Shown here one piece after another: positions 3,187 through 11,166 of a DNA stretch of 11,166 nucleotides. Under the pieces are notes generated by a model. It saw nothing but the letters and a program-made list of their open reading frames with translations, searched no databases and was not told the DNA's origin. This stretch comes from a virus: UHGV virus genome UHGV-1660291; one strand, given 5' to 3'. Position numbers and translations under genes: made by a program. Positions within the stretch are counted from its first letter, which is position 1. Each line of letters starts with the position of its first letter.

Positions 3187-3927
3187 ATGCCTGTACCAAA
3201 TCCTGTAATGCCGGTGAAAGGTGCCGGGACCACCCTGTGGGTTTATAAGGGGAGTGGTGACCCTTATGCGAATCCGCTTTCAGACGTTGACTGGTCGCGT
3301 CTGGCAAAAGTTAAAGACCTGACGCCCGGCGAACTGACCGCTGAGTCCTATGACGACAGCTATCTCGATGATGAAGATGCAGACTGGACTGCGACCGGGC
3401 AGGGGCAGAAATCTGCCGGAGATACCAGCTTCACGCTGGCGTGGATGCCCGGAGAGCAGGGGCAGCAGGCGCTGCTGGCGTGGTTTAATGAAGGCGATAC
3501 CCGTGCCTATAAAATCCGCTTCCCGAACGGCACGGTCGATGTGTTCCGTGGCTGGGTCAGCAGTATCGGTAAGGCGGTGACGGCGAAGGAAGTGATCACC
3601 CGCACGGTGAAAGTCACCAATGTGGGACGTCCGTCGATGGCAGAAGATCGCAGCACGGTAACAGCGGCAACCGGTATGACTGTGACGCCTGCCAGCACCT
3701 CGGTGGTGAAAGGGCGGAGCACCACGCTGACCGTGGCATTCCAGCCGGAAGGCGCAACCGACAAGAGCTTCCGTGCGGTGTCTGCAGATAAAACAAAAGC
3801 CACCGTGTCGGTCAGTGGTATGACTATCACCGTGAAAGGTGTTGCTGCAGGCAAGGTCAACATTCCGGTTGTATCCGGTAATGGTGAGTTTGCTGCGGTT
3901 GCAGAAATCAACGTCACCGCCAGTTAA
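3187..3927 (+). CDS. V: Major tail tube protein gpV, with C-terminal Ig-like domain
   Basis: ATG 3187 preceded by GAGGA at 3178-3182; 246 aa ([31 protein letters not shown]...) recognised as lambda V-like; stop TAA 3925-3927. The six-frame ORF starts 10 codons upstream at 3157 inside the U coding region, without a ribosome-binding site. Confidence 0.93.
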
Positions 3928-3942
3928 TCCGGAGAGTCAGCG

Positions 3943-4365
3943 ATGTTCCTGAAAACCGAATCATTTGAACATAACGGTGTGACCGTCACGCTTTCTGAAC
4001 TGTCAGCCCTGCAGCGTATTGAGCATCTCGCCCTGATGAAACGGCAGGCAGAACAGGCGGAGTCAGACAGCAACCGGAAGTTTACTGTGGAAGACGCCAT
4101 CAGAACCGGCGCGTTTCTGGTGGCGATGTCCCTGTGGCATAACCATCCGCAGAAGACGCAGATGCCGTCCATGAATGAAGCCGTTAAACAGATTGAGCAG
4201 GAAGTGCTTACCACCTGGCCCACGGAGGCAATTTCTCATGCTGAAAACGTGGTGTACCGGCTGTCTGGTATGTATGAGTTTGTGGTGAATAATGCCCCTG
4301 AACAGACAGAGGACGCCGGGCCCGCAGAGCCTGTTTCTGCGGGAAAGTGTTCGACGGTGAGCTGA
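3943..4365 (+). CDS. G: Tail assembly chaperone gpG
   Basis: ATG 3943 preceded by GGAGAG at 3931-3936; 140 aa (MFLKTESFEHNGVTVTLSELSALQRIEHL...) recognised as lambda G-like; stop TGA 4363-4365. Confidence 0.93.
   Translation: MFLKTESFEHNGVTVTLSELSALQRIEHLALMKRQAEQAESDSNRKFTVEDAIRTGAFLVAMSLWHNHPQKTQMPSMNEAVKQIEQEVLTTWPTEAISHAENVVYRLSGMYEFVVNNAPEQTEDAGPAEPVSAGKCSTVS
4341..4347 (+). other. Programmed -1 ribosomal frameshift slippery heptamer G GGA AAG (G to GT)
   Basis: GGGAAAG at 4341-4347, with GGA and AAG in the G frame, lies 16 nt upstream of the G stop codon. The -1 frame is open from 4347 to 4781 and has no convincing ribosome-binding site of its own. Confidence 0.85.
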
Positions 4366-4781
4366 GTTTTGCCCTGAAACTGGCGCGTGAGATGGGGCGA
4401 CCCGACTGGCGTGCCATGCTTGCCGGGATGTCATCCACGGAGTATGCCGACTGGCACCGCTTTTACAGTACCCATTATTTTCATGATGTTCTGCTGGATA
4501 TGCACTTTTCCGGGCTGACGTACACCGTGCTCAGCCTGTTTTTCAGCGATCCGGATATGCATCCGCTGGATTTCAGTTTGCTGAACCGGCGTGAGGCTGA
4601 CGAAGAGCCTGAAGATGATGTGCTGATGCAGAAAGCGGCAGGGCTTGCCGGAGGTGTCCGCTTTGGCCCGGACGGGAATGAAGTTATCCCTACTTCCCCG
4701 GATGTGGAGGACATGACGGAGGATGACGTAATGCTGATGACAGTATCAGAAGGGATCGCAGGAGGAGTCCGGTATGGCTGA
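4347..4781 (+). CDS. T: T segment of tail assembly chaperone gpGT, expressed as a G-T fusion by -1 frameshifting (joined product 3943..4346 + 4347..4781)
   Basis: ORF in the -1 frame relative to G, beginning at the slippery site and ending TGA 4779-4781; translation ...FDGELSFALKLAREMGRPDWRAMLAGMSSTEYADW... recognised as the lambda T region. Confidence 0.85.
   Translation: MFDGELSFALKLAREMGRPDWRAMLAGMSSTEYADWHRFYSTHYFHDVLLDMHFSGLTYTVLSLFFSDPDMHPLDFSLLNRREADEEPEDDVLMQKAAGLAGGVRFGPDGNEVIPTSPDVEDMTEDDVMLMTVSEGIAGGVRYG
4641..4667 (+). repeat. Copy 1 of a duplicated 27-nt / 9-aa motif in the T segment (G-L-A-G-G-V-R-F-G)
   Basis: GGGCTTGCCGGAGGTGTCCGCTTTGGC encodes GLAGGVRFG (T residues 99-107); imperfect direct repeat of 4752-4778. 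Confidence 0.7.
4752..4778 (+). repeat. Copy 2 of the duplicated motif (G-I-A-G-G-V-R-Y-G), the last 9 residues of GT
   Basis: GGGATCGCAGGAGGAGTCCGGTATGGC encodes GIAGGVRYG and also contains the H ribosome-binding site (GGAGGA 4761-4766) and the H start codon (ATG 4774-4776). Confidence 0.7.
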
Positions 4782-7335
4782 ACCGGTAGGCGATCTGGTC
4801 GTTGATTTAAGTCTGGATGCGGCCAGATTTGACGAGCAGATGGCCAGAGTCAGGCGTCATTTTTCCGGTACGGAAACTGATGCGAAAAAAACAGCGGCAG
4901 TCGTTGAACAGTCGCTGAGCCGACAGGCGCTGGCTGCACAGAAAGCGGGGATTTCCGTCGGGCAGTATAAAGCCGCCATGCGTATGCTGCCTGCACAGTT
5001 CACCGACGTGGCCACGCAGCTTGCAGGCGGGCAAAGCCCGTGGCTGATCCTGCTGCAACAGGGGGGTCAGGTTAAGGACTCCTTCGGCGGGATGATCCCC
5101 ATGTTCAGGGGGCTTGCCGGTGCGATCACCCTGCCGATGGTGGGGGCCACCTCGCTGGCGGTGGCGACCGGTGCGCTGGCGTATGCCTGGTATCAGGGCA
5201 ACTCAACCCTGTCCGATTTCAACAAAACGCTGGTCCTTTCCGGCAATCAGGCGGGACTGACGGCAGATCGTATGCTGGTCCTGTCCAGAGCCGGGCAGGC
5301 GGCAGGGCTGACGTTTAACCAGACCAGCGAGTCACTCAGCGCACTGGTTAAGGCGGGGGTAAGCGGTGAGGCTCAGATTGCGTCCATCAGCCAGAGTGTG
5401 GCGCGTTTCTCCTCTGCATCCGGCGTGGAGGTGGACAAGGTCGCTGAAGCCTTCGGGAAGCTGACCACAGACCCGACGTCGGGGCTGACGGCGATGGCAC
5501 GCCAGTTCCATAACGTGACGGCGGAGCAGATTGCGTATGTTGCTCAGTTGCAGCGTTCCGGCGATGAAGCCGGGGCATTGCAGGCGGCGAACGAGGCCGC
5601 AACGAAAGGGTTTGATGACCAGACCCGCCGCCTGAAAGAGAACATGGGCACGCTGGAGACCTGGGCAGACAGGACTGCGCGGGCATTCAAATCCATGTGG
5701 GATGCGGTGCTGGATATTGGTCGTCCTGATACCGCGCAGGAGATGCTGATTAAGGCAGAGGCTGCGTTTAAGAAAGCAGACGACATCTGGAATCTGCGCA
5801 AGGATGATTATTTTGTTAACGATGAAGCGCGGGCGCGTTACTGGGATGATCGTGAAAAGGCCCGTCTTGCGCTTGAAGCCGCCCGAAAGAAGGCTGAGCA
5901 GCAGACTCAACAGGACAAAAATGCGCAGCAGCAGAGCGATACCGAAGCGTCACGGCTGAAATATACCGAAGAGGCGCAGAAGGCTTACGAACGGCTGCAG
6001 ACGCCGCTGGAGAAATATACCGCCCGTCAGGAAGAACTGAACAAGGCACTGAAAGACGGGAAAATCCTGCAGGCGGATTACAACACGCTGATGGCGGCGG
6101 CGAAAAAGGATTATGAAGCGACGCTGAAAAAGCCGAAACAGTCCGGCGTGAAGGTGTCTGCGGGCGATCGTCAGGAAGACAGTGCTCATGCTGCCCTGCT
6201 GACGCTTCAGGCAGAACTCCGGACGCTGGAGAAGCATGCCGGAGCGAATGAGAAAATCAGCCAGCAGCGCCGGGATTTGTGGAAGGCGGAGAGCCAGTTC
6301 GCGGTACTGGAGGAGGCGGCGCAACGTCGCCAGCTGTCTGCACAGGAGAAATCCCTGCTGGCGCATAAAGATGAGACGCTGGAGTACAAACGCCAGCTGG
6401 CTGCACTTGGCGACAAGGTTACGTATCAGGAGCGCCTGAACGCGCTGGCGCAGCAGGCGGATAAATTCGCACAGCAGCAACGGGCAAAACGGGCCGCCAT
6501 TGATGCGAAAAGCCGGGGGCTGACTGACCGGCAGGCAGAACGGGAAGCCACGGAACAGCGCCTGAAGGAACAGTATGGCGATAATCCGCTGGCGCTGAAT
6601 AACGTCATGTCAGAGCAGAAAAAGACCTGGGCGGCTGAAGACCAGCTTCGCGGGAACTGGATGGCAGGCCTGAAGTCCGGCTGGAGTGAGTGGGAAGAGA
6701 GCGCCACGGACAGTATGTCGCAGGTAAAAAGTGCAGCCACGCAGACCTTTGATGGTATTGCACAGAATATGGCGGCGATGCTGACCGGCAGTGAGCAGAA
6801 CTGGCGCAGCTTTACCCGTTCCGTGCTGTCCATGATGACAGAAATTCTGCTTAAGCAGGCAATGGTGGGGATTGTCGGGAGTATCGGCAGCGCCATTGGC
6901 GGGGCTGTTGGTGGCGGCGCATCAGCGTCAGGCGGTACAGCCATTCAGGCAGCTGCGGCGAAACTCCATTTTGCGACCGGGGGATTTACGGGAACCGGCG
7001 GCAAATATGAGCCAGCGGGGATTGTTCACCGTGGTGAATTTGTCTTCACGAAGGAGGCAACCAGCCGGATTGGCGTGGGGAATCTCTACCGGCTGATGCG
7101 CGGCTATGCCACCGGTGGTTATGTCGGTGGCACCGGAAGTCCGGCGCAAATGCGGCGTTCAGAGGGTATCAGGTTTGAGCAGAACAACAACGTGGTGATT
7201 CAGAACGACGGTACGAATGGTCTGCCAGGTCCACAGATGATGAAAGCAGTGTATGACATGGCCCGCAAGGGTGCCCGTGATGAAATTCAGACACAGATGC
7301 GTGATGGTGGCCTGTTCTCCGGAGGTGGACGATGA
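4774..7335 (+). CDS. H: Tail tape measure protein gpH
   Basis: 853-codon ORF; ATG 4774 with GGAGGA at 4761-4766; N-terminus MAEPVGDLVVDLSLDAARFDEQMARV... recognised as lambda H-like. Long central Q/A/E/K/R-rich (coiled-coil-like) region and a Gly-rich C-terminal segment. Stop TGA 7333-7335 overlaps the M start. Confidence 0.95.
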   Translation: MAEPVGDLVVDLSLDAARFDEQMARVRRHFSGTETDAKKTAAVVEQSLSRQALAAQKAGISVGQYKAAMRMLPAQFTDVATQLAGGQSPWLILLQQGGQVKDSFGGMIPMFRGLAGAITLPMVGATSLAVATGALAYAWYQGNSTLSDFNKTLVLSGNQAGLTADRMLVLSRAGQAAGLTFNQTSESLSALVKAGVSGEAQIASISQSVARFSSASGVEVDKVAEAFGKLTTDPTSGLTAMARQFHNVTAEQIAYVAQLQRSGDEAGALQAANEAATKGFDDQTRRLKENMGTLETWADRTARAFKSMWDAVLDIGRPDTAQEMLIKAEAAFKKADDIWNLRKDDYFVNDEARARYWDDREKARLALEAARKKAEQQTQQDKNAQQQSDTEASRLKYTEEAQKAYERLQTPLEKYTARQEELNKALKDGKILQADYNTLMAAAKKDYEATLKKPKQSGVKVSAGDRQEDSAHAALLTLQAELRTLEKHAGANEKISQQRRDLWKAESQFAVLEEAAQRRQLSAQEKSLLAHKDETLEYKRQLAALGDKVTYQERLNALAQQADKFAQQQRAKRAAIDAKSRGLTDRQAEREATEQRLKEQYGDNPLALNNVMSEQKKTWAAEDQLRGNWMAGLKSGWSEWEESATDSMSQVKSAATQTFDGIAQNMAAMLTGSEQNWRSFTRSVLSMMTEILLKQAMVGIVGSIGSAIGGAVGGGASASGGTAIQAAAAKLHFATGGFTGTGGKYEPAGIVHRGEFVFTKEATSRIGVGNLYRLMRGYATGGYVGGTGSPAQMRRSEGIRFEQNNNVVIQNDGTNGLPGPQMMKAVYDMARKGARDEIQTQMRDGGLFSGGGR

Positions 7336-8364: not shown

Positions 8365-9108
8365 ATGACACAGACAGAATCAGCGATTCTGGCGCACGCC
8401 CGGCGATGTGCGCCAGCGGAGTCGTGCGGCTTCGTGGTAAGCACGCCGGAGGGGGAAAGATATTTTCCCTGCGTGAATATCTCCGGTGAGCCGGAGGCGT
8501 ATTTCCGGATGGCTCCGGAGGACTGGCTGCAGGCAGAAATTCAGGGTGAGATTGTGGCGCTGGTCCACAGTCACCCCGGTGGTCTGCCCTGGCTGAGTGA
8601 GGCTGACCGGCGGCTGCAGGTGCAGAGTGATTTGCCGTGGTGGCTGGTCTGCCGGGGGACGATTCATAAGTTCCGCTGTGTGCCGCATCTCACCGGGCGG
8701 CGCTTTGAGCACGGGGTGACGGACTGTTACACGCTGTTCCGGGATGCTTACCATCTGGCGGGGATTGAGATGCCGGATTTTCATCGTGAGGATGACTGGT
8801 GGCGTCACGGTCAGAATCTCTATCTTGACAATATGGAGGCAACGGGTTTTTACCGTGTCGCACTGACAGAGGCACAACCGGGCGATGTGCTGCTGTGCTG
8901 TTTTGGTTCATCGGTGCCGAATCATGCCGCCATTTACTGTGGTGACGGCGAGCTGCTGCACCATATTCCTGAACAACTGAGCAAACGAGAGAGGTATACC
9001 GACAAATGGCAGCGACGCACACACTCCCTCTGGCGTCACCGGGCATGGCACGCATCTGCCTTTACGGGGATTTACAACGATTTGGCCGCCGCATCGATCT
9101 GCGTGTGA
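8365..9108 (+). CDS. K: Tail tip assembly protein gpK (JAB/MPN metallopeptidase plus NlpC/P60 domain); long form from ATG 8365, alternative internal start ATG 8509
   Basis: 247-codon ORF. JAMM motif visible: E19 in AESCGF (nt 8419-8421) and H68-S-H70-x7-S78-x2-D81 (nt 8566-8607). NlpC/P60-like Cys121 in GVTDCYTLF (8725-8727) and His187/His199. Lambda K is annotated from the internal Met in my memory (199 aa), but E19 lies upstream of that Met. Stop TGA 9106-9108. Confidence 0.8.
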   Translation: MTQTESAILAHARRCAPAESCGFVVSTPEGERYFPCVNISGEPEAYFRMAPEDWLQAEIQGEIVALVHSHPGGLPWLSEADRRLQVQSDLPWWLVCRGTIHKFRCVPHLTGRRFEHGVTDCYTLFRDAYHLAGIEMPDFHREDDWWRHGQNLYLDNMEATGFYRVALTEAQPGDVLLCCFGSSVPNHAAIYCGDGELLHHIPEQLSKRERYTDKWQRRTHSLWRHRAWHASAFTGIYNDLAAASICV

Positions 9109-9665: not shown

Positions 9666-9687
9666 AAACCGCCTGCGGGCGGTTTTG
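9666..9687 (+). terminator. I/J intergenic hairpin with T-tract (terminator-like)
   Basis: AAACCGCC (9666-9673), loop TGCG (9674-9677), GGCGGTTT (9678-9685): 8-bp stem whose 3' arm runs into TTTT, 20 nt upstream of the J start. Confidence 0.4.
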
Positions 9688-9707
9688 TCGTTTATGGAGC
9701 GTGACGA

Positions 9708-11166
9708 ATGGGTAAAGGCAGCAGTAAGGGGCATACCCCGCGCGAAGCGAAGGACAACCTGAAGTCCACGCAGCTGCTGAGTGTGATCGATGCCATCAGC
9801 GAAGGGCCGGTTGAAGGTCCGGTGGATGGATTAAAAAGCGTGCTGCTGAACAGTACGCCGGTGCTGGACAGTGAGGGGAATACCAATATATCCGGCGTCA
9901 CGGTGGTGTTCCTGGCCGGTGAGCAGGAGCAGACACCGCCGGAGGGATTTGAATCCTCCGGCTCCGAGACGGTGCTCGGTACAGAAGTGAAATATGACAC
10001 GCCGATCACCCGGACCATCACGTCGGCAAACATCGACCGTCTGCGTTTTACTTTCGGCGTGCAGGCACTGGTGGAAACCACCTCAAAGGGGGACAGGAAT
10101 CCATCGGAAGTCCGCCTGCTGGTTCAGATACAACGTAACGGTGGCTGGGTGACGGAAAAAGACATCACCATTAAGGGTAAAACCACTTCACAGTATCTGG
10201 CCTCGGTGGTGGTGGATAACCTGCCGCCGCGCCCGTTTAATATCCGGATGCGCAGGATGACGCCGGACAGCACCACAGACCAGCTGCAGAACAAAACGCT
10301 CTGGTCGTCATACACCGAAATCATCGATGTGAAACAGTGCTACCCGAACACGGCACTGGTCGGCGTACAGGTGGACTCGGAGCAGTTCGGCAGCCAGCAG
10401 GTGAGTCGTAATTATCATCTTCGCGGGCGCATTCTGCAGGTGCCGTCGAACTATAACCCGCAGACGCGGCAATACAGCGGTATCTGGGACGGAACGTTTA
10501 AGCCAGCATACAGCGACAACATGGCCTGGTGTCTGTGGGATATGCTGACCCATCCGCGCTACGGCATGGGGAAACGTCTTGGTGCAGCAGATGTGGACAA
10601 ATGGGCGCTGTACGTTATCGGCCAGTACTGCGACCAGTCTGTACCGAATGGTTTTGGTGGTACGGAGCCGCGCATCACCTGTAATGCGTACCTGACCACG
10701 CAGCGTAAGGCATGGGATGTGCTCAGCGATTTCTGCTCGGCGATGCGCTGTATGCCGGTATGGAACGGACAGACGCTGACGTTCGTGCAGGACCGACCCT
10801 CGGATAAGGTGTGGACCTATAACCGCAGTAATGTGGTGATGCCGGATGATGGTGCGCCGTTCCGCTACAGCTTCAGCGCCCTGAAGGACCGCCATAATGC
10901 CGTTGAGGTGAACTGGATTGACCCGAATAACGGCTGGGAGACGGCGACAGAGCTTGTGGAGGACACGCAGGCCATTGCCCGTTACGGTCGTAACGTCACG
11001 AAGATGGATGCTTTTGGCTGTACCAGCCGGGGGCAGGCACACCGCGCCGGGCTGTGGCTGATTAAAACAGAACTGCTGGAAACGCAGACCGTGGACTTCA
11101 GCGTGGGTGCCGAAGGGCTTCGCCATGTACCGGGCGATGTCATTGAAATCTGCGATGATGACTATG
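9708..11166 (+). CDS. J: Tip attachment protein / central tail fibre gpJ, 5' portion (continues beyond the window end)
   Basis: ATG 9708 preceded by GGAG at 9696-9699; the frame stays open to the window end (486 codons); N-terminus MGKGSSKGHTPREAKDNLKSTQLLSVIDAISEGP... recognised as lambda J-like. Confidence 0.93.
   Translation, partial: MGKGSSKGHTPREAKDNLKSTQLLSVIDAISEGPVEGPVDGLKSVLLNSTPVLDSEGNTNISGVTVVFLAGEQEQTPPEGFESSGSETVLGTEVKYDTPITRTITSANIDRLRFTFGVQALVETTSKGDRNPSEVRLLVQIQRNGGWVTEKDITIKGKTTSQYLASVVVDNLPPRPFNIRMRRMTPDSTTDQLQNKTLWSSYTEIIDVKQCYPNTALVGVQVDSEQFGSQQVSRNYHLRGRILQVPSNYNPQTRQYSGIWDGTFKPAYSDNMAWCLWDMLTHPRYGMGKRLGAADVDKWALYVIGQYCDQSVPNGFGGTEPRITCNAYLTTQRKAWDVLSDFCSAMRCMPVWNGQTLTFVQDRPSDKVWTYNRSNVVMPDDGAPFRYSFSALKDRHNAVEVNWIDPNNGWETATELVEDTQAIARYGRNVTKMDAFGCTSRGQAHRAGLWLIKTELLETQTVDFSVGAEGLRHVPGDVIEICDDDY

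Follow-up and report, generated by a model that had tools for sequence, protein, structure and literature searches.

How is a reading frame translated that has no start of its own? UHGV virus genome UHGV-1660291 raises this question in a stretch of 11,166 nucleotides (nt; the whole of the DNA analyzed, numbered 5′ to 3′ along one strand and hereafter called the window), in which two overlapping open reading frames (ORFs), G and T, lie between the tail tube gene V, which ends at 3927, and the tape measure gene H. The answer we favor, at a probability of roughly 0.97, is that ribosomes would enter T by slipping back one base near the end of G, at the programmed −1 ribosomal frameshift site that lambda-type siphoviruses have in their tail assembly chaperone genes, G and T. 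The elements of the junction are as follows.

4341–4347, plus strand: slippery heptamer G_GGA_AAG, recognized by its position and phase, identical to that of lambda and given as the slip site of lambda G/GT in PMC3296357 (Table 1) and PMC7618472.
3943–4365, plus strand: gene G, for the tail assembly chaperone gpG of 140 amino acids (aa), the abundant zero-frame product; assigned by translation, PF06894 and TIGR01674.
4363–4365, plus strand: G stop codon TGA, which shifted ribosomes would bypass; read from the sequence.
4302–4365, plus strand: G/T overlap in which the 0 and −1 frames are both stop-free, bounded by the last upstream stop of the −1 frame (4299–4301) and the G stop (4363–4365).
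4347–4781, plus strand: T segment, 144 codons and a TGA in the −1 frame, the predicted C-terminal part of gpGT; assigned by translation, PF06223 and TIGR01715.
3943–4781, plus strand: predicted coding path of the GT fusion, running through G codons 1–135 (3943–4347), back one base, then through 4347–4778.

G starts at ATG 3943, which places the first base of the heptamer at the third position of codon 133; the zero-frame codons at the site are GCG (4339–4341), GGA (4342–4344, Gly134) and AAG (4345–4347, Lys135). The original prediction had put GGGAAAG at 4341–4347 in the G frame, 16 nt ahead of the G stop, and translation of both frames bears this out: 15 nt (4348–4362) separate the heptamer from a stop codon that begins 16 positions past its last base. 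The codon next after a −1 slip is GTG 4347–4349, the first of 144 sense codons that lead up to TGA 4779–4781. This length is also as predicted, but the accompanying statement that the frame opens exactly from this point does not stand, since the −1 frame is stop-free already from 4302 and its preceding stop, TGA 4299–4301, lies 13 codons (39 nt) ahead of the heptamer. GTG 4347 is thus the first start-type codon of the T frame and not the frame's opening. The predicted GT product has 279 aa and a mass of ∼31.3 kDa, with …AEPVSAGK on the G side of the junction and VFDGELSF… on the T side.

The locus can be identified with considerable precision. The window is ∼97% identical to lambda and its relatives across all 11,166 bases and, judged by this homology, comprises the structural genes E to J of a Lambdavirus. 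Positions 3900–4800 align with 9668–10568 of lambda (NC_001416), where V, G, T and H are annotated in the same order, at 99.1% nucleotide identity. The eight differences in these 901 nt comprise two in V, one synonymous change in G, and five in T, three synonymous and two residue-changing (A116T and A121E); none falls within ∼230 nt of the slip site. The G protein is 100% identical to lambda gpG, with the same 140 residues, and the heptamer, the 15 nt to the G stop, the 144-codon T part and the overlap of the H start with the end of T are all as in lambda. The slip region itself is identical, in keeping with the earlier claim that the site is intact.

The protein families concur. G matches PF06894 (Phage_TAC_2, E = 9e-62) and the equivalog TIGR01674 (phage_lambda_G) at 219 bits against a cut-off of 74, and T matches PF06223 (Phage_tail_T, E = 1.8e-14) and the equivalog TIGR01715 (phage_lam_T) at 190 bits against a cut-off of 77. 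In phrog_32165, a family of 290 positions, G aligns to 1–142 and T to 140–285, from which it follows that this PHROG family represents the fused protein. A sequence search of the PDB at E ≤ 1 returned, noise apart, no relative with a solved structure for either gpG (3943–4362) or the T part (4347–4778). The same stretch is present at ≥60% identity in 3704 of 5426 complete Escherichia coli genomes, and because the best matches among them are 99.9% identical and chromosomal, the window probably comes from an E. coli prophage. From the 99.1% identity, the curated G and T families, the synteny and the comparative data below, we regard the locus as the lambda G/GT frameshift site itself, carried by a close lambda relative, and not merely as a similar one; the original assignment to the tail assembly chaperone frameshift is upheld.

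Is the arrangement kept where the sequence has drifted? Our comparison set comprised 16 phage loci (28–100% G identity) and 80 loci from species-representative genomes, from which 60 distinct loci were used to count the motif and 52 distinct junction sequences to tabulate its variants and spacings. At every usable locus the frame of T is −1 relative to that of G, the single exception being a disrupted Shigella copy. An in-phase N_NNA_AAR motif occurs inside the G/T overlap, whose median length is 12 codons, at all 60 distinct loci, against a background in the bodies of G of 1.8% per in-phase position. The motif persists in six sequence variants and at three distances from the G stop (15, 3 and 0 nt). 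GGAAAAG accounts for 40 of the 52 distinct junctions and GGGAAAG, the version in the window, for four; the remainder are GGTAAAG (three), AGAAAAG (two), GGCAAAA (two) and GGGAAAA (one). A perfect X_XXY_YYZ heptamer is therefore in the minority among relatives, the 40 junctions with G_GAA_AAG allowing imperfect P-site re-pairing, and the element that stays constant is the A-site A_AAR, which we read as the signature of tRNA-Lys slippage.

Conservation extends across the junction into the protein. The alignment of T-frame proteins is gap-free from the first residue past the slip, and E5, F8, L12, A13, R14, E15, R18, D20, W21 and R22 are invariant in eight diverse T sequences. The frameshift arrangement is thus maintained in diverged relatives despite sequence drift, and the comparative data support frameshifting and speak against independent initiation of T. 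The anatomy of the junction, its homology and the conservation of the arrangement are direct observations of this analysis.

In the exceptional Shigella copy (L064, Shigella flexneri CP182557.1), G is broken ahead of T: seven codons are open, a slip motif is lacking, and the copy probably comes from a prophage that has decayed or been interrupted.

The sequence at the site permits tandem re-pairing, of tRNA-Gly from GGA to GGG and of tRNA-Lys from AAG to AAA. In the mechanism that we envisage, most ribosomes would pass GGA-AAG without shifting and stop at TGA 4363–4365 to yield gpG (140 aa). A small fraction, with tRNA-Gly on GGA and tRNA-Lys (anticodon mnm5s2UUU) on AAG, would slip back one base, re-pair with GGG and AAA and read on from GTG 4347, yielding a gpGT of 279 aa made of G residues 1–135 and the 144-residue T part. 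With T lacking its own start, the slip would fix the G:GT ratio, at roughly 30:1. The G parts would then coat the tape measure protein H while the T part brings in V, the tail tube protein, the V tube would polymerize around H to the right length, and neither G nor GT would remain in the virion.

For synthesis of the fusion, the shift rate and the chaperone roles, we rely on published work on the lambda site, which is identical. That site is the founding example of the tail assembly chaperone frameshift and is already well known; the original lambda case is that of Levin et al. 1993 and Xu et al. 2004/2013/2014, as cited in PMC3296357, PMC5009743 and PMC7618472. At the lambda heptamer, the G/GT −1 frameshift site, about 96% of ribosomes continue in frame and ∼4% shift, and the shift responds to thiolation of U34 in tRNA-Lys (PMC3296357). 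PMC5009743 lists G_GGA_AAG among the highly shift-prone heptamers of E. coli; the lambda G:GT ratio of ∼30:1 is critical for tail assembly, and G and GT are chaperones that the assembly of the tail requires but that are not found in the virion (PMC5009743). The binding partner of G is the tape measure protein H, and that of T is V, the tube protein (section 9 and Figure 4 legend of PMC5009743). The two products, their ratio and the Gly-Lys junction of the fusion go back to Levin 1993 and Xu 2013, as cited in PMC3296357 and PMC5009743. Both G and T scored as essential in a CRISPR interference screen of lambda (PMC10695390). The copy in the window would be expected to behave like that of lambda, with A116T and A121E changing nothing.

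Could such a site arise by chance? None of the observations speaks against the frameshift reading, but two limit how strongly it may be put. Taken on its own, the heptamer is as frequent as chance predicts: GGGAAAG occurs three times in the window against 1.57 expected, at least three copies appear in 40 of 200 shuffles, and of the other two copies one is on the minus strand and one lies out of phase inside K. Moreover, the compared loci are related and not independent, so that a nominal probability calculated from the retention of the motif is overstated.

The combination of phase, nearness to the G stop, a long −1 frame and no ribosome-binding site is nevertheless far from chance. Among the in-phase X_XXY_YYZ heptamers in the 12 plus-strand genes of the window, only that at 4341–4347 is near a gene end with a long −1 frame, its −1 extension running for 144 codons as against 1–46 for the others. 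The T frame, at 159 stop-free codons, is longer than all 193 −1-frame runs inside these 12 genes (median 10, maximum 80). A chance heptamer beside a dead ORF is excluded by the family matches and the conservation. In-phase heptamers of slippery type also occur as G_GGA_AAC at 2553–2559 in gene Z and as G_GGT_TTT at 8844–8850 in gene K; both lie mid-gene, have −1 extensions of 30–31 codons and probably arose by chance.

Compared with relatives over 4348–4447, the T frame is unusually conserved at the nucleotide level for its first ∼80 nt, many third codon positions included, as in the stretches CTGGCGCG, GACTGGCG and ATGCT, also between phages with G proteins only ∼42–45% identical. Protein constraint together with mosaic exchange is a possible cause, as is constraint at the level of the RNA.

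Does the mRNA assist the slip? The original prediction had proposed a search for RNA structure downstream of the heptamer, and such a search produced one candidate, which is found in the minimum-free-energy fold and in eight close relatives and is not recovered in the 52 distinct relatives.

4355–4425, plus strand: weak candidate downstream RNA fold, with an outer stem 4355–4362/4418–4425 around a hairpin at 4381–4416; from folding.

A lineage-restricted structure of this kind would tune the frameshift in addition to the heptamer. The 100 nt past the heptamer fold at −38.7 kcal/mol, and the minimum-free-energy fold agrees with the RNAalifold consensus of the eight fairly close relatives, in which the stem, enclosing the hairpin, begins after a 7-nt spacer of the right length. 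The high downstream nucleotide conservation, third codon positions included, fits such a structure, as does the one stem pair that switches from G-C to A-U in three of the eight sequences, in the HK225/phi80 group, via a synonymous change on the 3′ side. Almost all of the other pairs are invariant, however, so that most of the stem never varies among these close relatives, and the folding z is only −1.55 (−1.03 for a 60-nt piece). In a gap-free alignment of the 52 distinct relatives, 70.5% of cells pair in the candidate stem; paired cells and the covariation score lie above column shuffles, but covarying pairs and pair types do no better than shuffles (402 and 417 of 500, respectively, reach the observed values), and RNAalifold gives no consensus. 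Restriction to the 34 sequences with the 15-nt spacing raises the paired cells to 79.5%, yet measures robust to relatedness again give no support, and whole clades break stem 1 even within this subgroup. An Rfam search of 4200–4600 found no match.

With the relatedness-robust measures not significant and no RNAalifold consensus, we do not accept a downstream RNA structure as an established feature, and we conclude that no conserved stimulator is demonstrable, in agreement with the literature, in which the G-T class needs no stimulatory signals (PMC5009743). Additional tuning by the stem 4355–4362/4418–4425 around the hairpin 4381–4416 in part of the lineage is accordingly unlikely. The more specific proposal, that a three-way mRNA fold 7 nt past the heptamer tunes the frameshift rate in the lambda/N15/phi80 subgroup with its 15-nt gap, is slightly less likely again. 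If true, it could account for the unusually high conservation of synonymous sites over the first ∼80 nt of T and would run counter to the accepted view, in which G-T shifting requires no stimulator.

Alternatively, T could be an ordinary gene in its own right, with its start at GTG 4347 or an internal ATG (4392, 4416 or 4428) and the heptamer incidental to it. GTG 4347 could serve as a start codon, the RefSeq entry for lambda annotates T as a coding sequence (CDS) at 10115..10549, other records begin T at internal ATGs, and T residues M24 and M28 are invariant. We calculated the pairing energy of the 16S anti-Shine-Dalgarno (anti-SD) sequence with the 20 nt upstream of each start codon and found no SD ahead of any of the four candidates, the best pairing amounting to −4.3 to −1.9 kcal/mol. 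Such energies are ordinary, with 36–76% of window positions doing equally well, as against −6.6 kcal/mol for G and −10.3 kcal/mol for H, and the earlier statement that T has no credible ribosome-binding site is confirmed. We found no promoter-like site within 3800–4900 and no promoter or terminator between G and T; the sole terminator-like match, at 4782–4799, lies inside H and is at chance level.

The relatives are equally unfavorable to a separate T gene. A start-type codon, GTG, stands at T residue 1 in only two of the 52 distinct junctions; elsewhere the first in-frame start codon comes at residues 6–24, downstream of invariant residues, and the first in-frame ATG is at residue 24 in 29 of the 52. 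Conserved T residues upstream of any start codon imply that they are translated only by ribosomes arriving from G. The slip motif, incidental on this alternative, is kept in 60 of 60 relatives, and gpG and gpGT, not free gpT, are reported for the identical lambda site (PMC3296357, PMC5009743). Considering the SD energies, the non-conserved start codon and the conserved N terminus upstream of any ATG, we reject independent initiation of T, which we hold to be highly improbable.

Less probable still is transcriptional slippage, in which RNA polymerase would add or drop a base in an A or G run with no slip of the ribosome: although some genes of bacteria and phages yield frameshifted products by this process (see the review PMC5009743), and some relatives have AAAAAAG at the slip position, the longest runs at the site, GGG and AAA, fall far short of known polymerase slippage tracts, the conserved motif is a phase-specific A_AAG/A_AAA with a variable first triplet, a mark of tRNA-Lys re-pairing and not of homopolymer length, and the efficiency of the lambda site depends on tRNA-Lys modification (PMC3296357).

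Ribosomal frameshifting at the heptamer also places the locus among known systems. Lambdoid phages of the N15, HK225, phi80, cdtI and Gifsy-1 type and enterobacterial prophages have homologous G and T proteins (28–46% G identity), with T likewise in the −1 frame, an A_AAG tRNA-Lys slip and the same position between tube and tape measure genes. They differ in usually carrying G_GAA_AAG, with its imperfect P-site re-pairing, in the possible stop spacings of 3 or 0 nt, and in a T of ∼113–117 aa without the duplicated C-terminal segment of the lambda type. E. coli dnaX (A_AAA_AAG) also makes a −1 tandem slip with tRNA-Lys on an A-site AAG; in contrast to the G/GT site of the window, which has no evident stimulator, a low efficiency and a longer shifted product, it has an upstream SD-like element and a downstream stem-loop, shifts at ∼50% (PMC3965066) and yields a shorter shifted product. 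Retroviral gag/gag-pol follows the same logic, in that an X_XXY_YYZ heptamer close to where the upstream ORF ends holds the longer fusion protein at a low, fixed ratio to the abundant short one (PMC3296357, PMC7618472), but it is eukaryotic, needs a downstream pseudoknot or stem-loop and involves unrelated proteins.

The two neighbors of the G/T pair are assigned as follows.

3187–3927, plus strand: V, major tail tube protein, upstream of G; PF16461 (Phage_TTP_12, E = 2.7e-70) plus Big_2, and the lambda annotation.
4774–7335, plus strand: H, tape measure protein, downstream of T; PF06791 (TMP_2, E = 7e-70), PF09718 and the ORF list.

The start of V follows that of its lambda homolog; ATG 3157, farther upstream, is open as well. 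H begins within the last codons of T, which hold both its SD (AGGAGG, 4760–4765) and its ATG (4774), and the two genes overlap by 8 nt. This boundary has a diverged counterpart within T itself. The C terminus of T contains a direct repeat of 47 nt (4621–4667 and 4732–4778), 111 nt apart and 70% identical, of which the second copy holds the H SD and ATG 4774 and the first has GGAGG, followed by TTT in place of the ATG. A conserved peptide, AGGVR(F/Y)G, coincides with the translation-initiation region of H. HK225 and phi80 have a single repeat copy and a T that is ∼30 aa shorter, and from these observations the lambda-type T appears to owe its greater length to a duplication of the T-end/H-start junction.

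For a site already known from lambda, the discovery value is small, and the practical value of the analysis lies in annotation. T is best annotated as a ribosomal-slippage join, G-T (279 aa), and not as a free-standing 144-aa gene; many public records still carry it as a gene of its own or begin it at an internal ATG. In enterobacterial prophages, such a join could be called by a rule that combines the A_AAR motif, the six heptamer variants and the spacings of 15, 3 and 0 nt. T stands as a free-standing CDS in the public records of lambda (RefSeq, L001), Turner (L005), VT1-Sakai (L011), phi80 (L012) and Eeyore (L010); its annotated start is the GTG at the slip site in lambda and an internal ATG 27–50 nt downstream in the others. 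In phage Turner, G is labeled 'hypothetical protein'.

About sixteen near-identical (98%) copies of the lambda G-T locus were encountered in assemblies of unrelated bacteria (among L019–L033, L046, L052 and L075), including Neobacillus, Kitasatospora, Shewanella, Leeuwenhoekiella, Chromatium, Enterococcus and others. Since most of these copies are on contigs that are short or have a coverage near 1, they are almost certainly lambda DNA contamination.

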